Made by a program: the position numbers and the translations under genes
Origin: Candidatus Thorarchaeota archaeon
GTDB taxonomy: Archaea > Asgardarchaeota > Heimdallarchaeia > Hodarchaeales > Hodarchaeaceae
Direction: 5' to 3'
DNA length: 32,000 nt
NCBI GenBank assembly: GCA_048882505.1
Contig: JBHLRO010000004.1
Location: 140,193 to 172,192 of the forward strand
Notes under the pieces: model-generated
Database searches by the model: none
Seen by the model: only the letters and a program-made list of their open reading frames with translations
What the model was told of the DNA's origin: nothing
Shown: positions 3,634 through 27,663 of the stretch, in pieces
Position numbering within the stretch: the stretch's first letter is position 1
Layout: every line of letters begins with the position of its first letter

Positions 3634-3751
3634 AGTTTCTGTGAATGTGAAAATTGATCAGAGGATTCAGATTTTTGCTTCTGATACAGGTTTTCTAGGG
3701 AGATTAAGATTATGAGCGTTTGCTAAAGTGTTAATAATCTAGTATGCAGAA

Positions 3752-3766
3752 AGTAACCTAATTACT
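3752..3766. promoter_or_regulatory. Palindrome AGTAA-N5-TTACT, candidate transcription-factor site
   Basis: Perfect 5-bp arms in an intergenic region; related AAAGTAACC copies at 10554-10570 and 11824-11840. Confidence 0.35.
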
Positions 3767-3886
3767 CTCCGTCCTCTGTCCTAGGGGGACTTTACCTGTA
3801 ATTTCTGGGTTTCATTCAATTCAAAACCTCAAACTTGGAGGCTTCTTTATGAATTCATAATCCTTCGAGGCAGATGTTGGGTTTTA

Positions 3887-4276
3887 CTAGGTGTATTTCG
3901 AGGGACACTTAGTACTGATCAATCTTGCCTTGAACTTCCATAGATTAGCTATAGAGAGGAGCTCTCCTTCAACAAGCACTGTTTTTCCAATCTCAAATCC
4001 TGAGGGTCTTATCACATTAGTTGAATTGACATAAATGAGTAATGACGTATTATCAACGTCTTCAGGATCAGAGATATAGAAACCCGTGCTATTCATGTCT
4101 TCTACAACTCCTATAACTTGGATATTTTTATTCATTAAAGAATCGGGTTGAGAATGATCTATTAGTTCTTTTACGGTAAATACTGGAGTAGAAGTATTTG
4201 CTATGAGAAGAAAGAAAGCACCCAAGCAAACAATGACAGTCGAGATAACTATGATAAGATTTTTTGTACCAGTCAT
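3887..4276 (-). CDS. ccmE: Cytochrome c maturation heme chaperone CcmE, CxxxY variant
   Basis: N-terminal TM, OB-fold-like core (IQVIGVV...VLVEG), C-terminal KCPSKY; lies 18 nt downstream of ccmF. Confidence 0.85.
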   Translation of the reverse strand: MTGTKNLIIVISTVIVCLGAFFLLIANTSTPVFTVKELIDHSQPDSLMNKNIQVIGVVEDMNSTGFYISDPEDVDNTSLLIYVNSTNVIRPSGFEIGKTVLVEGELLSIANLWKFKARLISTKCPSKYT

Positions 4277-4294
4277 TCTGTTCGCCCTCGGTTT

Positions 4295-6520
4295 CTATGA
4301 TTTCATTTGAGTGGGAATACTTTCTCCAGGCTTAATTCTACCTTTGTCTGCCTTGGATGAAGAGAATACCTGTTTGACATCAATAAATCTCTTGATCGTT
4401 AAGGGAATCATTGCAAAATGCAAGAGAAGGCAGCCAATCCAGAGCACACCGATATAAGGGATTATCCTTATTTGCAGAGTACACATGTCAAATCTGTTGG
4501 TAATCCTATTTTGAAATACTCCCGAAGTAACCACATATATATCTGCAAGGAGGTCGCTAATGATGGTTACCTTTGGATTTTGTCTGTCTACACGATCCAG
4601 AGCAAATTGACTGATGGCAACACCGATTACTCGCGTACCTGTGGTGATCATGAAAGTGGTATCGTATTCAACAGAGTTTTGCCCGCTTTCAGGAAATCTT
4701 TGATCCAAATCCAGTATTGAAATTTTGAGAGATGTACCTGCTATTTCATACTCATTTCCCGCTTGAACCGTGATTTCGTGAGTAAGTACCATATTAGCAC
4801 TTAGAATTGCTCCCAAAATAATCACTAGGAATGATAAATGCAACATTATCTGGGAAGATTTCCGCATTAGCTGTTTTTCTTCCTTTAGTGCTACAGTTAT
4901 GAATTCAATGAAGAGGCCCACCATTCCCAGAACAATGAGCGGGACGACCAAATTTGCCTTATCACTAGTAGTCCAAAAATTACTGAAGAATGCCGAAATC
5001 AGATTCCCGTCTCCTAGAATTGATGAAAGAATTCCATTTCGATGTAGGATTCCGCTAACAGCGAACAGAATCCCCGCAGTGACTCCCCCAAATACTAATC
5101 CGAATTTTCCTTTCAAACTTATTCTGGGGTAAAAGGTACAGAAAAACTGTGTTAAAAGCATTATACCTCCAAACAAGGCAAGCATTGTATTATAAAAAGG
5201 TGGACCAATCGATAAAGTAAATTCAAACCCATTAGGACTCAACGTAACAATATACCCAAGAATGTCAATCAAGATCGGTGTTATTAAACCTAGGATCATA
5301 ACGATTGTCCCGAAAAAAAGGGCGAGATATGAGATTTTTAACGCGGTTCGTCGGGCCTTCTTTGTTTGAAAATCAGATTTGGTCAATGTAATAGGAAGAC
5401 GCATAATTTCTTCGTTTTTTATACCCATTAAATGCACAGCAATAAAGGTTACAAGAATAACAACGAATAACAGTAACATCCTTTCATCAGGGATTATTCT
5501 TAAAATAATTGCCATAATAAAGCTATTTGAAGGTATGACGATCGTCAAAAGACTTTCTAGAATTCCATCTGGAGCAAATGTGTGAACACTGGAGAGAATT
5601 CCGCTTCGTGTTAGATACGTTGCAAATAAGGCGCCAAGGTACGTCATACTGATGATATAATTTCCAAGATATTCGTTTTTACGATGAAAAGACATTCCAT
5701 GGAAGTAAAGGGTTAAGAATAGCCAGGGTATTAATGAAGCTGTCTCTACGGGATCCCATGCCCAAAAACCCCCCCATCCGAGGGTTACATAAGCCCAATA
5801 GCCACCAATGATAATACCCGAGCCCAAAACAAGCCAAGCTAGGGTAACTACAAAATCAAAGTATTTATCTACCTTATCTTTTCCATCAAAATTGGGAACT
5901 TTCCCTTTTTCAAGAATGGAAATTCGAACAATTCCAATAACCATAGGAATTAAACATAAAGCGTAGCCCACAAATATTATAGGCGGGTGGATAAAATTCC
6001 AGAAATTCATTAATAGTGGATTGAGGCCAATACCATCTGTCTTTGGTATAGGTTCGATTCTAAATGGTTCACTTAAGATTGTCAATAAGGTCAATAATGC
6101 CACTTGAAATGCCATCAGCGCAAATACACGCCAGAAAAAGGTTTCATGTGAGTATTGCCGGAATAGTAATCGCGTTATGGTATAGATAACTATCGCTAGA
6201 AACGCCCAGAAGAAATAAGAGCCCGCCTGACCTGACCAAATAGCAGATATCCTCATAAAAATATCCATACTATTGTTTACAAAACTACTAACGTATGTGA
6301 AACCATAATCAGCGGTAATGACAGAGAAACCAAAATAAACAAATGAAGTTATCAATGCTAATCCGCTGATAATGAGGCTTATCTCCGAATAATCTTCCCA
6401 TCTTTCGATGTATTCGCCCAAAAGTACAATGAATAAATCAAAAATCAAGCCTATGAGGCTTACAAGGAGTAAAACTACCCCTAAATCCATTCCAAATATA
6501 CCTAAATTAATGTAAAACAT
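4295..6520 (-). CDS. ccmF: Cytochrome c biogenesis heme lyase CcmF
   Basis: IHPP, WGGFWAWDPVETASLIPW (WWD domain), TRSGILSSVHTF, HLSFL; multi-TM. Confidence 0.92.
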   Translation of the reverse strand: MFYINLGIFGMDLGVVLLLVSLIGLIFDLFIVLLGEYIERWEDYSEISLIISGLALITSFVYFGFSVITADYGFTYVSSFVNNSMDIFMRISAIWSGQAGSYFFWAFLAIVIYTITRLLFRQYSHETFFWRVFALMAFQVALLTLLTILSEPFRIEPIPKTDGIGLNPLLMNFWNFIHPPIIFVGYALCLIPMVIGIVRISILEKGKVPNFDGKDKVDKYFDFVVTLAWLVLGSGIIIGGYWAYVTLGWGGFWAWDPVETASLIPWLFLTLYFHGMSFHRKNEYLGNYIISMTYLGALFATYLTRSGILSSVHTFAPDGILESLLTIVIPSNSFIMAIILRIIPDERMLLLFVVILVTFIAVHLMGIKNEEIMRLPITLTKSDFQTKKARRTALKISYLALFFGTIVMILGLITPILIDILGYIVTLSPNGFEFTLSIGPPFYNTMLALFGGIMLLTQFFCTFYPRISLKGKFGLVFGGVTAGILFAVSGILHRNGILSSILGDGNLISAFFSNFWTTSDKANLVVPLIVLGMVGLFIEFITVALKEEKQLMRKSSQIMLHLSFLVIILGAILSANMVLTHEITVQAGNEYEIAGTSLKISILDLDQRFPESGQNSVEYDTTFMITTGTRVIGVAISQFALDRVDRQNPKVTIISDLLADIYVVTSGVFQNRITNRFDMCTLQIRIIPYIGVLWIGCLLLHFAMIPLTIKRFIDVKQVFSSSKADKGRIKPGESIPTQMKS

Positions 6521-22067: not shown

Positions 22068-22797
22068 ATGAACGGAGATAAGTTCATGGGGAGGACCGAC
22101 AATATTGTCCTGAATTCAGATGTGATTCGGATGGGGCAAAATCAAGAACAAAAATCTAAACGAAACCTAAGCATTTACGACATCGGGGGAATCTTGGGAA
22201 CAGAAGCTGGTCATTTCGGAGGAATGCCTGCTACAGCGCGTTTACTAGAAATTATGGAGATCAATCCAATGGAGGACAAACGGTGGCTGGAGATTGGATG
22301 TGGTTCGGGTACAACAAGTTGCTTTATTGCAGAGCGATTTCCCCAACTTCAGGTGATCGGAATTGACCTTTCTAAACAAATGATTGCTAGCGCGAAAAAA
22401 CGCGCCCAAAAGAATCAGCTTTCCAATGCAGAATTCCTCGTCGCCAATGCCCATAATTTGCCTTTCAAAGACAATTTTTTCGACGTGGTAATCGCTGAGT
22501 CCGCTACTGGTGTAATACCAGATAAATCAAGGCTTCTTCGGGAATACTTAAGAGTTCTAAAGCCAGGTGGTAAATTTGGGAACATTGACGGATTTTTGAC
22601 TTCTGAAGCCGCCCCCGAAGTGGGAACAAAGATAAGTGAACTAATGACCGGCGTTATTGGATCATCAATTGCCATCCGCACCAGCCAGGAATGGAAAGAT
22701 CTATTTCGCGATGCAGGGTTTTCAAATATTAGAACGGAAGAAAGTAGACAAGACGTGCTCCCTTTTACAACTACTAAGGTCATTCGTAAAACATATG
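22068..22797 (+). pseudogene. Class I SAM-dependent methyltransferase, 5' part of an interrupted gene
   Basis: WLEIGCGSGTT, VIGIDLS, ANAHNLPF, FDVVIAES, RVLKPGG. The 255-aa ORF reads into the insertion, stops at 22835 and lacks the final beta strand. Confidence 0.88.
22791..22797 (+). repeat. Left copy of 7-bp direct repeat ACATATG (target duplication or crossover core)
   Basis: Identical to 27478-27484 and in the same codon phase (ACA TAT G) of the methyltransferase. Confidence 0.85.
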
Positions 22798-22830
22798 TTG
22801 ATCTTAAGGATACCTCGGCGCTTAGAAATG

Positions 22831-22851
22831 TGTAAAGTTAGGTGGTGTGCT
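22831..22851 (+). repeat. Left arm of an imperfect 21-bp inverted repeat (partner 27460-27480)
   Basis: TGTAAAGTTAGGTGGTGTGCT versus reverse complement TGTAAAGTGGTGGGGTTTGCT: 16/21, first 8 identical. Confidence 0.65.
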
Positions 22852-22982
22852 TTATTCTTGGTGGGAATATGCTTATTCTTTCGGAAATAATGGGGAAGTA
22901 TAATCCTACGGAGACATTATCTATTATTGATTCAACAACAGCCTCAAAAAGGGTGCAAAAGTAAACGATCTCACCCTACCCC

Positions 22983-23014
22983 TATATCTTACTATCTATA
23001 TATCTTACTATCTA
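22983..23014 (+). repeat. Perfect 16-bp tandem duplication (TATATCTTACTATCTA)x2
   Basis: Read directly; lies in the non-coding left end of the element. Confidence 0.85.
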
Positions 23015-23024
23015 ATCCCTTCTC

Positions 23025-23537
23025 TTAATCCCTTTCTACTCGTCTTTTACGAATCAGAACTAATGTTAGCCCAATTAAGACCAACCCGATAATTTCTATC
23101 CCGTAGGACGCATCTGAAACAACACCCGTCTTTGTAATCGTTGCAACGACCATATCGGTGAAAACGATCTGGAAAGTCACTTCATAAGAATTTGCGTAAA
23201 TAGTCTGAATTTCAAACGTAAAATTAAGAGTATTTGAACTAGAAAAGGTAATCTGACCCGTCCAAGTGTCTTGAAGAGAGCTTAATCCATCGGGGCTTGA
23301 TGTCCATGTAAATAATGTTGCTGTATTATTAGATGCTGAAACATACGCCACGTATGAGCCAGCAGATCCATTTGCTTCAATAAAAACATGATAATCGCCT
23401 GCTGGTATAAACACTGATTGTTGACTCGGCGTTGTTGTCGTTGCTCCTCCAATGATCGATATTTGATTACCACTAACAGGAATTAAAGTCATACCCAGTA
23501 GTAAACTAAAAATAACCAATAACCCTATCTTTTTCAT
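23025..23537 (-). CDS. Element-borne cell-surface protein with signal peptide and PGF-CTERM-like anchor
   Basis: MKKIGLLVIF signal, beta-rich body, SYGIE-TM-RKRR tail, GAGGTGG SD. Confidence 0.75.
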   Translation of the reverse strand: MKKIGLLVIFSLLLGMTLIPVSGNQISIIGGATTTTPSQQSVFIPAGDYHVFIEANGSAGSYVAYVSASNNTATLFTWTSSPDGLSSLQDTWTGQITFSSSNTLNFTFEIQTIYANSYEVTFQIVFTDMVVATITKTGVVSDASYGIEIIGLVLIGLTLVLIRKRRVERD

Positions 23538-23586
23538 CTTCTACCACCTCATTTTCCTCTTCATTTAAAATTCCGTAATTTCTTGA

Positions 23587-23811
23587 CTAATCCGTTGAAA
23601 TGTTTCTTACAGCGCTGACAATTTCAACTTCACCTTGATTGTCCATTTCTAATTGCTGTTTTAAAATGGTAGCTAATTGAGTTTTAGTTGAAATTGTATG
23701 AAAACTTTCTTCTGCTCGTTCTTGATTTCGTTTATCGGCAAAATCTTTGACAATTATAGCTAAACGCTTGTATAACACCATCTTTTTTTTGATTATACAG
23801 CATAGGTTCAT
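23587..23811 (-). CDS. Element-borne small hypothetical protein (74 aa)
   Basis: GAGGTAGAGG SD; ATGA overlap with the upstream micro-ORF; helical and charged. Confidence 0.55.
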   Translation of the reverse strand: MNLCCIIKKKMVLYKRLAIIVKDFADKRNQERAEESFHTISTKTQLATILKQQLEMDNQGEVEIVSAVRNISTD

Positions 23812-23879
23812 TTTCTAGCCTCTACCTCTGGAATATAATAGTATCCATCTTTGTATTCCTGGAATAGGGAATATAACAT
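23808..23879 (-). CDS. Putative 23-aa micro-ORF MLYSLFQEYKDGYYYIPEVEARK
   Basis: ATG overlaps the upstream TAA (TAATG); its TGA overlaps the next ATG (ATGA). Confidence 0.4.
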   Translation of the reverse strand: MLYSLFQEYKDGYYYIPEVEARK

Positions 23880-24499
23880 TAATTCCTTGTATTATTCTCC
23901 GATTTCTCAAGATTCGGATTCTTTTTTACATCTTTGAGAAAATACTCTAAATTACTTGGTTTAATCACTTTTGGATACCCTACTAGTGCAATCTTAACTA
24001 CTCTGTCTTTGGGTCTTGCTTTAATGGGAATATCTACCTTTTTAACGCTTCTAATCACATGCACTCCCATAGCCTCAGGAAGTAGCGTGAAAATTCTAGG
24101 GGTATTCTGACAAAATTGAATACATTTTTTCTTTAACCTTGATCTTACTCCTCCTTGCCAATATAGCACATTTCTACACTGTTTTTCCGTCCAATTCGGA
24201 TGTTTCTCTTTCATTTTGTCTCTATGTGCTTTCAGATTAAATTCTTCCAAAATAAACCAATGGTTCTTACTTAAATCGATAAAATCCTCGATTAATGGGG
24301 CTTGCGGCGGACATTCCAGTTTCTTGGCATAGTTAGGACACCCTCTAGGATGATTGGGATACGGTAGCCTGCACCACTCCCTCGCTCTATGATCAATAAC
24401 CAGCTTGCCTGTGACATCACACCAAGATACTGATAGCTTTGAAGCCCTAGCAACTATAGAAACCCATATACTCGTCAAAAAATATTTTGAAAACACCAT
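23879..24499 (-). CDS. DUF2284-like Cys-rich predicted metal-binding protein
   Basis: WCRLPYPNHPRGCPNY....CPP, CRNVLYWQ, PEAMGVHV; GGAG SD before ATG 24499. Confidence 0.7.
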   Translation of the reverse strand: MVFSKYFLTSIWVSIVARASKLSVSWCDVTGKLVIDHRAREWCRLPYPNHPRGCPNYAKKLECPPQAPLIEDFIDLSKNHWFILEEFNLKAHRDKMKEKHPNWTEKQCRNVLYWQGGVRSRLKKKCIQFCQNTPRIFTLLPEAMGVHVIRSVKKVDIPIKARPKDRVVKIALVGYPKVIKPSNLEYFLKDVKKNPNLEKSENNTRN

Positions 24500-27296
24500 T
24501 AAACTCCGAAATCAAGAGGAATATGGGGTAATTGAAGCTGCTGGTGTCCTTGGAAGAAAAAAATGGGGAATATATAATAAAAAAGGAGAAATCCATTGTA
24601 AAGTTCACGGCAAAGGGGCTTACAAAGGTTCTGATGAGGCCTACAAGGAACTCTATAGAAACTATCTAACTACTGACTATTCCCATCAAGAAAATGCTCG
24701 TCTAGCCATCAAAAAGCACCCCGTTTTTCAATCCGTCAGTTATCGTAAAAGTGATTCATCATTTTTCAAAGGAATTATTCCCTTTCTTAAAAAAGGAGAA
24801 TTAATCAATCAATTCCAATTCAACGAAATTCCCCTCTACATCTATAAACTCCAAAACGGAAAAGACTACGATTATTTGATTATTAACACTACCAAAATCA
24901 ATAAAGCTCAGTTCGGGTCGTATCTCAAACTCGATCAATTCTCTAGTAATAAAGTCATTTTCTGTATCCTCGCTCCTTGTCAATTTATGAATATTGTCAA
25001 ATTTATCTTATCCAAACCAGAAGAAGAGACAGGCATAATACGCAAAACCAAATACCATTATACTAAAAAAATTCGCCATATCTATGATGATTTGACAATT
25101 ATTCTTGATCCTCTTACTCCCGAGTATAAAGTTGATGATTACGGAGAGGTCAATACTTTTATTCAAGAGCCCTTTGATCATTTACGAAATGTAAAAAACT
25201 TTGAAGAATTTTTCAAAAAAGACAAACGCAAATTAGCCAATGCTCTTAAAGAAACCTTTGAACGTCTTCTTGGAGGATCATTACGAGGAGACCTAGAAAA
25301 TCTTACACCAAAAACCTGGAATAACCTAAGTGAATCAGCAAGCGAATTAAATCTTGACAAAGATGAATTCCTTGAAGTATTCGCAAGATATGCTCGTTTA
25401 AACAAGCTAGTAGATTACCATTACGACCAACTCAATCTAGAAGACATAGAAAAAGCCGATTTATACAGTCAAGCCTCCGAAAAGAAAAAACTCCATAAAA
25501 AATTCGTTAAACTCCTCGAATTTGACAAATCACGCTTTCATCGGAACCGTAAAATCCTACCAAACAAAACCTACAATATTATGATTCCAAGACCTTATAA
25601 ACGGCGAATTAAACATGATACCCTCAAAGAATATAAGAATCGTGACAAATTTACCTCTGATGGCTTCAGTTTTATCTATTCTGGAAATCTCCCAGATATG
25701 GATTTTTCCGCTGATCTGCTAAGCCAACAAAACAAGTACTATTCCCAAGCCATTACTAATATAGCCTTAACCGCCAGCATAATCTGGGCCAAAACACATT
25801 ATACTAATCTTACCACCATAAACGAAAAAATCAATAACTACCTTACTGCAAAAAAAGAAGATCAAATAACCCTTCCCTGCCCAAAAACCAACAAATACGT
25901 CCTAGTTCCATTCAAAATTCAACGTAAAATCCCTCTAGATACCACCCAAATCGATCATGAAACCTTCGTTCAACTTTTCGATTTGACCCTTCGGCATAAA
26001 TTAATCAAAAACAAAATCCTCATCAAACAAGATAATAAATATATTGTCAACGATACTTCTAAATTCAAATCTTACCTCAAACGCAATTATAAATATGAAT
26101 GGATTGAAATTGACTGGTTAAAGCGAAAATGGAGCGTTTCTATCGAAAAAGGTGCAAGCCTTGATTATAATGCCACCCTTGCCAACAAAATTACCGTTGA
26201 TGAAACACAACTCGGTAAACGCACCTTTGAGTGTGGTCTCCGTCTAAATCCCTCCTCAAAAAATTTACACAACATAGATCTGTTTAAAACAAGCGTTGAT
26301 GAACTAGATGAGAATTCTGCAATCGGCAAAATTCTGCTAGAAAAACTCTTTGAATCGAATCTGTTGACTTATTTTGCCAAAAAACGGGCAACCCATAAAG
26401 AAGATTTACAAAGCGCTTCTAAACCGTACGATGGCTATAAAATAACCTATCTTACACTCGCCCATTCCAACATACAACGTAAAATTCCCCAATTACGCCC
26501 TAAACTAAGTATTGTTGCTTATACCTTGGATTTGAATACATTAAGTTCCACTACTAAGCTCGTTCCCCATTTAAACGGTCTTTTCAGAGCTCGATTAAAC
26601 GATATTTACAATCAAATCGAAGACATGGGCGAAAGAATCCAAAAAATGCTATCAGTCAACGTTTCAACAAATCGATTCTCCCTTGGATTCAATATCAATT
26701 ATTATGAAGACAAATTCACAATCTCTATCTACGGTAAAGACTTCTACCAACATTTAAGCAAAATCAAAAGAGTCTCAAACCATGAAAAACTAGAAGATCT
26801 ACCCCTGCAAAAAATACGCCATCTAGAAGAACTCAAAGAACTAGAAAACGATCGACATAAGCTTAGAATTGAATTAACAATCCGAGGGTGGGAACAAATT
26901 CACACAAAAGCCTACTACCAATACTTAGACCAAATAAAACATCTCATTTTGCGTCAAGATCTCGCTTTATACAATGAAAACATCAATCTACACTGTCCAA
27001 TTAAAAAATGTCAAAAACAACCATTTAAAATCTTCTATTTAGAAAATCATATCGAATTAATGTGTCCCAAATGCCATACCACCCATAAATATGATTATAA
27101 CGAAATCAAAAACAATACCCAACATTCTGAATTAAAAAAACTCACTGAACTAGAAATTCAAGCCAATAAAGAACTAGATAGCATAGAAAGAAAAATCGAG
27201 AATGCTACTGGTAAACCAAATGGATTGAGTCGGAACAATGGAGAAATTAAAGAAGACGAACAATCTAAACAAACAAAATTGACTGATTTTGGGTAA
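24405..27296 (+). CDS. Large basic element protein (963 aa): putative Rep_trans-fold replication initiator or TnpB/Cas12-like RuvC protein, with Zn finger and C-terminal PIP box
   Basis: Motif order IDWL(569), LRLNPSSK(612), SIVAYTLDL(702), ISIYGK(773), LRIELTIR(820); CPIKKC...CPKC(864-890); QTKLTDF(956-962). Start uncertain (TTG 24405 overlaps the divergent gene). Coding status is secure; the family call is tentative. Confidence 0.4.
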   Translation: MPVTSHQDTDSFEALATIETHILVKKYFENTIKLRNQEEYGVIEAAGVLGRKKWGIYNKKGEIHCKVHGKGAYKGSDEAYKELYRNYLTTDYSHQENARLAIKKHPVFQSVSYRKSDSSFFKGIIPFLKKGELINQFQFNEIPLYIYKLQNGKDYDYLIINTTKINKAQFGSYLKLDQFSSNKVIFCILAPCQFMNIVKFILSKPEEETGIIRKTKYHYTKKIRHIYDDLTIILDPLTPEYKVDDYGEVNTFIQEPFDHLRNVKNFEEFFKKDKRKLANALKETFERLLGGSLRGDLENLTPKTWNNLSESASELNLDKDEFLEVFARYARLNKLVDYHYDQLNLEDIEKADLYSQASEKKKLHKKFVKLLEFDKSRFHRNRKILPNKTYNIMIPRPYKRRIKHDTLKEYKNRDKFTSDGFSFIYSGNLPDMDFSADLLSQQNKYYSQAITNIALTASIIWAKTHYTNLTTINEKINNYLTAKKEDQITLPCPKTNKYVLVPFKIQRKIPLDTTQIDHETFVQLFDLTLRHKLIKNKILIKQDNKYIVNDTSKFKSYLKRNYKYEWIEIDWLKRKWSVSIEKGASLDYNATLANKITVDETQLGKRTFECGLRLNPSSKNLHNIDLFKTSVDELDENSAIGKILLEKLFESNLLTYFAKKRATHKEDLQSASKPYDGYKITYLTLAHSNIQRKIPQLRPKLSIVAYTLDLNTLSSTTKLVPHLNGLFRARLNDIYNQIEDMGERIQKMLSVNVSTNRFSLGFNINYYEDKFTISIYGKDFYQHLSKIKRVSNHEKLEDLPLQKIRHLEELKELENDRHKLRIELTIRGWEQIHTKAYYQYLDQIKHLILRQDLALYNENINLHCPIKKCQKQPFKIFYLENHIELMCPKCHTTHKYDYNEIKNNTQHSELKKLTELEIQANKELDSIERKIENATGKPNGLSRNNGEIKEDEQSKQTKLTDFG

Positions 27297-27459
27297 TCCT
27301 TCCTTTTCAATCTAACTCTAAACTGATTTTTTCATATCATTTCTGTTTTAAATACTTACAATTCCCTACTTTTCTTGATTTTCGCAGACTTAGCTTCACG
27401 CTAGGCCTACCCCGACTGTGCTTGACTGCACTTGACCTCGCTTTGTTTCCCTTACCCTC

Positions 27460-27480
27460 AGCAAACCCCACCACTTTACA
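27460..27480 (-). repeat. Right arm of the imperfect 21-bp inverted repeat, abutting and overlapping the 7-bp core
   Basis: AGCAAACCCCACCACTTTACA pairs with 22831-22851. Confidence 0.65.
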
Positions 27481-27663
27481 TATGGAATTTTTGGAATAAT
27501 CAAAATTACCTTCCGACTCGGGTATTACATGATTGTCAACTCCAGTTTCAGAGGCGTCATAAACAAAATCAGAAAAACTCGAGGGTTTATGTTCGCAAAA
27601 ACTAAGGGCGGATCGTATCGTAATTTGGGATATCAAATTCTGGCGGCCTCAAAACCTATCTAG
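27478..27663 (+). pseudogene. Class I SAM-dependent methyltransferase, 3' part (61 codons plus TAG); first 7 nt are the right ACATATG copy
   Basis: TYGIFGIIKITFRLGYYMIVNSSFRGVINKIRKTRGFMFAKTKGGSYRNLGYQILAASKPI*. Ends in an LGY....(R/S)KP-type terminal strand, has host-like GC and joins the 5' part in frame. Confidence 0.85.

Follow-up and report, generated by a model that had tools for sequence, protein, structure and literature searches.

An integrated Asgard archaeal element breaks at a conserved site downstream of its polymerase/initiator-like fusion gene, a candidate rolling-circle-type origin

We analysed 32,000 nucleotides (nt) of contig JBHLRO010000004.1 (positions 140,193 to 172,192 of the forward strand; assembly GCA_048882505.1, Candidatus Thorarchaeota archaeon, Hodarchaeaceae), hereafter the window. 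It carries a 4,687-base-pair (bp) element inside a host methyltransferase gene, with the heptamer ACATATG at both ends. The element encodes a 963-amino-acid (aa) protein, a truncated fusion of a family-B DNA polymerase (PolB) and a TBP-fold domain that resembles replication initiators. In related elements the homologous gene is followed by a conserved site, and it is at the core of this site that the window copy joins the chromosome. Gene and site form a conserved module; they are all that the elements share. Our preferred reading, which we hold with about even confidence, is that the site is a rolling-circle-type origin that doubles as a recombination site, with the fused initiator-like domain doing the cutting and rejoining. 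The following features, all on the plus strand, are needed for the argument.

22068-22797, host class I S-adenosylmethionine (SAM) methyltransferase gene, 5' part (Pfam Methyltransf_31/11/25; ortholog in G016:C108)
22791-22797, left 7-bp core ACATATG, an attL-type junction, with one copy in the empty site and two in the window
22798-22830, 33-nt element segment from the core to the left arm, the downstream (P') side of the site, missing from the empty site
22831-22851, left arm (TGTAAAGTTAGGTGGTGTGCT), 16/21 complementary to 27460-27480 and placed like the second arm of relatives L031 and L029
24405-27296, 963-aa open reading frame (ORF; P0001), the N-terminally truncated PolB/initiator-like fusion, characterized by its homologs, PolB motifs, structure models and fold searches
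27439-27459, conserved C-rich block (CGCTTTGTTTCCCTTACCCTC), upstream of the right arm and aligned with both copies in G020 and with L045
27460-27480, right arm (AGCAAACCCCACCACTTTACA), flush with the element end and pairing with 22831-22851
27478-27484, right core ACATATG, an attR-type junction, 181 nt past the stop codon of the large gene
27485-27662, host methyltransferase gene, displaced 3' part, joined to 22797 in the G016 empty site

The insertion is precise. A genome of the same genus holds the empty site (G016:C108), an uninterrupted orthologous class I methyltransferase gene whose flanks align with the window up to 22797 on the left and from 27478 on the right, at 89-91% identity. The insert measures 4,687 bp because ACATATG is single in this empty site and double in the window. 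The ortholog is 91% identical through residue 243 and then continues with the sequence found from window position 27485 onward; in the window, the interrupted frame reads into the element and stops at 22835. The joint of 22790 to 27478 also occurs in contigs from three runs of one sediment study, the probable source sample among them, where the empty-allele contig has a depth of 14.5 and the element 20.9. Occupied and empty alleles therefore coexist in one sediment study, which suggests that the element moved recently. It is single-copy in its genome, and no tRNA gene lies in the window. Its G+C content (~0.31-0.39) is below that of the flanks (~0.41-0.45), its GC skew is strongly negative (-0.1 to -0.41 over window 23500-27500) and its AT skew positive, unlike the flanks. 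This skew may be the strand asymmetry of a replicon copied from one strand.

A preliminary description of this DNA had drawn attention to the asymmetric ends of the element, and its geometry was confirmed when we re-checked the sequence. Of the 21 positions in 22831-22851, 16 match the reverse complement of 27460-27480, with arms that read TGT...ACA. The right arm shares the ACA of the right core, the left arm begins 33 nt past the left core, and there is no duplication around 22831. In a circularised element the arms would stand 37 nt apart, with a junction expected to read ...CTTTACATATGTTGATC....

Related elements show what this arrangement belongs to. We compared the region downstream of the large gene in L031, L032, L004, L029, L030, L045 and two copies in G020. 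Every one has a C-rich block of the TTTCC..CCCCAG type, ~20 variable nt and a TA(C/T)ATAT(G/A) core, ~170-190 nt downstream of the homologous gene. The distance from the stop codon to the core is ~170-190 nt in L031, L032, L004 and L045, and equivalents of the block itself are found in L031, L032 and L004. The variable stretch corresponds to the right arm in the window, with the core next to it. The preliminary description had named a lack of conservation in related elements as grounds for rejecting the repeat, and the comparison favours the repeat; what is kept is the architecture, with arm sequences peculiar to each element, while the right arm and the block upstream of it are preserved in other copies of the window type. 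In these nearest relatives (G020:C144 copies 1 and 2, and L045), the unit of block, arm and core is conserved whole over ~45 nt. L045 is the same DNA as G002:C137, which ends within the element.

Two relatives, L031 and L029, are uninterrupted and carry both arms on one molecule, just downstream of the homologous gene, with the core at the inner edge of the first arm. L031 encodes a full-length fusion (P0004) that is 44% identical to the window protein. Its arms match at 18 of 19 positions (TTTAACCAGCACTATACAT), lie 97 nt apart and sit within a 168-nt hairpin (z scores of -6.7 and -7.3). The arms of L029 are a perfect 12/12 match, 67 nt apart. In neither case did any of 100 shuffles give an arm match as good. 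The arm sequences are unlike between elements, and each arm pairs with its own partner. The circle junction predicted in the preliminary description is thus matched by contiguous arms in L031 and L029. ACATATG occurs in the unintegrated L031 and L032 as well, followed there by a similar T.TCTCAA, and the heptamer is therefore element sequence and not a target-site duplication. In the window, the segment 22798-22830 begins TTGATCTTAA, which bears a weak likeness to the TT.CT.AAT that follows the core in L032 and L029. L030 has a local hairpin directly 5' of its core. A marginal 10-nt match lies ~700 nt downstream in L004.

Integrated copies break at the same point. L045 and copy 2 of G020 are near-identical through ...TTTACATATA (…CTTTACATATA) and unrelated past it, and the element boundary is therefore flush with arm and core in independent insertions; similarity between independent integrated copies is lost exactly after the core. 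The junction of G020 copy 1 (ACAAATA) hints that the cut follows ACA. Empty sites for the L045/G002 and G020 insertions were not found, as relatives conserve neither the G020 junction nor the initial ~800 nt of the L045 flank. A degenerate 22-mer pattern of the right end has exact matches in only two of 400 Asgard genomes, the window genome G000 and G020. Four further genomes match with two mismatches only, at about the rate of a reversed-pattern control. The viral contigs searched gave no match to the pattern, and six of its seven metagenome matches are unrelated chance matches.

The large gene supplies a candidate enzyme. In the window protein, a TBP-fold domain (residues ~403-860) precedes a zinc ribbon, a coiled coil and a tail that reads QTKLTDFG. 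AlphaFold2 (AF2) models reach a pLDDT of 77 over the full protein and 89 over residues 403-860, where a domain of ~460 residues with a large insertion forms a TBP-like pair of beta-sheets. Among predicted viral structures, its best match is an inovirus G2P initiator (E 7.4e-4), followed by giant-virus TBPs and more inovirus initiators, and its nearest clusters in the ESM Atlas are the G2P/Phage_CRI and Rep_trans families. Across 24 sequences, eight residues are invariant (D417, N613, N621, Y774, K776, K784, R819 and E821, numbered as in P0001; positions 26730-26732 encode Y774). The strands that carry invariant residues (Y-x-K, R-x-E and LRxNPxSxN) are colinear in sequence with RIYNK, WRVEIE and RIEFNPNK of RepC. 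The invariant Y-x-K, R-x-E and D would mirror the active site of Rep_trans, with its Y191, K193, R212, E214 and D46/D142 (PMC4797284). The domain probably works like a nicking enzyme of the Rep_trans type. This reading is open to us because the situation is the same as for the archaeal Rep-Arvir (DUF7845) initiators, TBP-fold proteins that are related to Rep_trans by structure only (PMC13107129). We assign the window protein to neither Rep_trans nor Rep-Arvir.

The other half of the fusion is best seen in the relatives. An exhaustive HMMER search found 39 relatives of the 963-aa protein, most of them 1,600-2,000 aa long, and the C-terminal ~550 residues of the large ones match residues 330-860 of the window protein. 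Their aligned N-terminal parts contain all family-B polymerase motifs: Exo I (FDxEAD), Exo II (HNAxYD), Exo III (YxIxD), and motifs A (DFxSLYPH), B (KxxxNSxYG) and C (YxDTDS). The PF00136 profile reaches one member, P0016. The profile of the N-terminal parts matches primer-dependent PolBs in the PDB (Thermococcus PolB, Pol alpha, Pol delta and E. coli Pol II; E 6e-8) and finds no match to phi29 there. The window ORF begins exactly at motif C (…QDTDSFEA) and lacks the exonuclease domain and motifs A and B. Further truncated copies are P0003 (1,323 aa) and a G020 pseudogene. A fusion of PolB to a Rep_trans-like domain has no description in the literature that we covered in a limited search.

From these parts we propose a mechanism. 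In the free element, the two arms would be halves of one cis-acting site, ~180 nt downstream of the PolB/initiator-like fusion gene, in the order C-rich block, element-specific arm, TA(C/T)ATAT(G/A) core, 30-100-nt spacer and inverted arm. The arms would act as a hairpin or as a binding determinant, the core would be nicked by the invariant Y774, and the polymerase half would extend the 3'-OH of the nick. Integration would result when this chemistry is misdirected: the core is cut and joined to a host ACATATG, and the element becomes linearised at the core. Such an event would leave the block and right arm flush at the right end, the 33 nt and left arm at the left end, and a hybrid core on each side. 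The asymmetry of the ends would follow from the position of the core, which borders the inner edge of the first arm instead of lying halfway between the two. The anatomy of the site and its conservation are observed; we infer that the core is where nicking occurs, that the fused domain acts as the enzyme, and that the same domain performs integration. All of the junction evidence fits the set of roles offered in the preliminary description, in which the repeat could be attP-like, form the hairpin of a rolling-circle origin or bind a protein as a pair.

The proposal has precedents in known origins. The Rep-Arvir origin lies 150-210 nt downstream of rep and combines a non-conserved inverted repeat with a conserved element, as shown experimentally for SNJ2 (PMC13107129). 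Here too a mobile element encodes a TBP-like fold with an invariant tyrosine and acidic residues, and a lineage-specific inverted repeat and a conserved element lie downstream. Unlike those initiators, the window protein has no PF25227 match and no recognised winged helix-turn-helix (none was seen in the AF2 models), and its domain sits at the C-terminus of a family-B polymerase. SNJ2 inserts at a tRNA gene by means of its own tyrosine integrase; the window element has no integrase, and its junction with the chromosome falls within the origin-like site. The pT181 Rep_trans proteins (RepC/RepD) share the TBP-like double beta-sheet, Y-x-K, R-x-E and an acidic residue, as read here from sequence order and a model, and the pT181 origin (IRII/IRIII) likewise has inverted repeats, with a defined nick site where we have a putative one in the core. 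In contrast to pT181 Rep_trans, the window domain is archaeal, shows no profile similarity, is joined to a polymerase and has a large insertion within its ~460 residues. Location and makeup of the site match the SNJ2 origin and the bind-plus-nick logic of pT181 origins. As an origin, it would be Rep_trans/Rep-Arvir-like and distinct in its polymerase fusion and in serving as a chromosomal junction.

Nick-and-join at a short origin- or terminus-like sequence has been proposed for IS91, ISCR, Helitrons and the Rep-mediated integration of small single-stranded DNA replicons. These systems resemble the window element in having no inverted repeats flush at both ends and in their subterminal hairpins. 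They differ in using HUH (Y1/Y2) nucleases and in lacking such a 7-bp repeat and a polymerase fusion. By comparison with these systems, nick-and-join by the initiator-like domain at a pseudo-site is the simplest account of the insertion. More tentatively, we may be dealing with a new kind of self-replicating integrative element, one in which a giant PolB/Rep_trans-like nuclease primes rolling-circle replication at its own origin and inserts at ACATATG-like sites without integrase or transposase.

Several observations weigh against the origin-and-recombination reading. On the side of the enzyme, fold scores are middling, and a model of the isolated domain puts Rep_trans outside the top 50 PDB rows, which helix-grip and TBP folds lead. 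PF02486 (E<=10) and PF25227 find nothing in the genome, although PF25227 gave a positive control in Haloferax volcanii, and hhalign against five Rep_trans sequences returns a probability of 0.2-0.3%. The polymerase is truncated, and neither its missing 5' part nor a full-length copy occurs anywhere in the 94.5%-complete genome. With an ORF that starts only at motif C and the rest absent from the genome, the window copy is a truncated derivative and, by its sequence, probably a defective one. On the side of the DNA, a joint of right end to left end, as in a circle or tandem, was not found in assembled contigs, which were searched in place of raw reads. ACATATG occurs 483 times in the genome; the heptamer alone therefore cannot explain target choice, and more target determinants are needed under any model. 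L032, L004 and L030 have no clear distal partner arm, and the L031 core lies mostly within the stem and not in a loop. The window repeat is only a 16/21 match. At its circle junction, where the preliminary description anticipated a cruciform, the predicted fold is not unusually stable (z -1.1 to -1.3 against shuffles). The match exceeds chance only modestly: a 21-mer match of at least 16 arises in only 1-3% of dinucleotide-preserving shuffles of the terminal 100-150 nt, but the extended 18/24 match is borderline (p ~0.05). With shuffle p values of ~0.01-0.05 and a weak fold, the repeat of this copy alone is therefore weak evidence.

These last numbers lend themselves to a plainer explanation, namely that function is confined to the right-end block, for example as an origin, a terminator or a regulatory element, that the 16/21 match is chance, and that the L031 and L029 repeats are terminator-like hairpins between convergent genes. 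The three relatives that lack a distal partner arm would fit, as would the second arm of L031 and L029, which overlaps the 3' end of a convergent ORF. We nevertheless consider this explanation unlikely. A partner arm recurs at the same relative position in three lineages with different sequences, the first arm always abuts the recombination core, and the 168-nt hairpin of L031, at z ~-7, goes far beyond a terminator. Still less probable is a DNA transposon (DDE, casposase or polinton-like) with ACATATG as a 7-bp duplication and the arms as terminal or subterminal repeats, or a protein-primed linear replicon. A 7-bp direct repeat does flank the insert, the arms do read TGT...ACA, and casposons and polintons are likewise integrated elements with a short flanking direct repeat and a family-B polymerase as a hallmark gene. 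However, casposons and polintons are marked by true terminal inverted repeats, a duplication that derives from the target, a dedicated integrase (Cas1 or rve) and, mostly, a protein-primed PolB, and the window element shows none of these. The preliminary description had already rejected terminal inverted repeats with a target duplication, and we concur: the left arm is 33 bp inside the end, and the core stands beside the arm in unintegrated relatives, where the arms are 67-97 nt apart on one molecule. No integrase, transposase, Cas1, rve or tyrosine or serine recombinase domain was found with Pfam or PHROGs in the ORFs of 22798-27477, and the polymerase profile is that of primer-dependent PolB and not of the phi29 type.

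The strongest competitor, which we regard as possible though clearly less probable than our own proposal, is that a recombinase acting in trans (host XerA, another tyrosine recombinase or a helper integrase) uses the site as its attP, perhaps on a folded single strand. CTX phage provides the model: its attP(+) hairpin is integrated by host XerCD, and its initiator RstA is of the Rep_trans type. It shares with the window element two inverted half-sites, a spacer of tens of nucleotides, a one-sided crossover, asymmetric prophage ends and the absence of an integrase. A crossover on a single-strand hairpin predicts the very asymmetry that we see, with one arm flush and the other a loop length inside, and rolling-circle replication would supply the single strand. 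Element and target are identical over 7 bp, as long as the overlap region of a tyrosine recombinase, the core of the long L031 hairpin lies beside a small internal loop, and the element has no recombinase of its own. Yet CTX phage targets dif and needs XerC and XerD arms in its target, whereas targets here vary and share the heptamer only. The window target lies within a methyltransferase gene and other copies have other flanks, which argues against a single dif-like target. Moreover, attB and attP share no arms beyond the heptamer, no helper element with a full-length gene is present in the genome, and a host enzyme leaves unexplained why the crossover falls at the most conserved feature of the element, beside an initiator-like gene.

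If our proposal is true, origin, attachment site and polymerase-initiator fusion, which are usually separate, are combined in one compact module. It would explain how elements can integrate without an integrase in the archaeal lineage closest to eukaryotes, and the recently recognised archaeal TBP-fold initiators would gain a polymerase-fused branch. The minimal replicon, one gene and ~250 nt, would be testable as a vector for Asgard archaea.

The right end of G020 (~110-150 nt) is present twice, in direct orientation, around 1.4 kb that hold an unrelated 334-aa gene; L045/G002 has the single-copy form.

L028 (G020:C144) 3745-5361, minus strand, duplicated right end (block, arm and core)

The duplicate may have arisen when the element's own site took up a second insertion, in tandem or as a cassette, or, in reverse, the L045/G002 form may reflect recombinational loss between copies. 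The arrangement fits a repeatedly used site. The left boundary of the G020 remnant is not definable. The 334-aa protein has a Thr-rich stalk and a C-terminal membrane anchor; considered as a homolog of the 170-aa gene of the window, it proved not to be homologous.

Besides the large gene, the window element contains three ORFs.

23025-23537, minus strand, 170-aa ORF that starts like a signal peptide and has a membrane anchor at its C-terminus (no match in Pfam or PHROGs)
23587-23811, minus strand, 74-aa ORF (no Pfam or PHROG match)
23879-24499, minus strand, 206-aa Cys-rich ORF with DUF2284 (PF10050, E 5.8e-8, residues 32-107)

None of the three has a homolog in any related locus, and the element ORFs have no match in PHROGs. 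The 170-aa ORF is cargo and is convergent with the large gene in the circular form. The first ~30 codons of the 963-aa ORF are antisense to the annotated start of the 206-aa DUF2284-like ORF (24405-24499), and this overlap looks like the scar of an internal deletion in which ~2.6 kb of the polymerase gene was lost.

Pfam gave no match for the 963-aa protein or for any of 26 relatives, and Foldseek gave no PDB match at E<=0.001 with either AF2 model. The best Foldseek PDB rows, triphosphate-tunnel (VTC) proteins, have a TM of ~0.1 and were not trusted, and the whole-family profile against PDB sequences produced a coiled-coil artefact only. Aloposons, giant-gene Heimdallarchaeal transposons with tandem 3,000-6,000-aa genes and tRNA targets, are unrelated to the window element.

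Among the relatives, L031 shows no terminal overlap, so it is not shown to be circular. L032 (a Logan SRR29324599 contig of 45.7 kb) carries a full-length fusion gene among mostly small ORFs without Pfam matches, together with a second giant ORF of >1,700 aa, and its conserved site lies at the switch between convergent gene blocks. The contig is probably a virus or a large plasmid of Heimdallarchaeia. L021 (G024:C46) and L022 (G042:C26), from genomes of another family of the class, have a 1,106-aa open frame that matches the first ~240 profile positions (palm/thumb) and lacks the initiator-like domain; it may be a related polymerase without the fusion. In P0004, residues 1125-1193, the linker between polymerase and initiator-like domain, have a weak PT-HINT match below the cut-off (E 0.0036). 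A PCNA-box-like C-terminus, Q(T/S)KL(T/I)DFG, is found in the window protein and P0002 only, among P0001-P0027. In many other members of the family, the protein ends with KDPPD or with a tail containing PPP, which may be a different docking motif. Finally, contigs ~91% identical to parts of the large gene (24806-25129 and 25568-25955; run X1) occur in the source sample beside the exact copy, so that community also contains a second variant, either of the element or of the gene.

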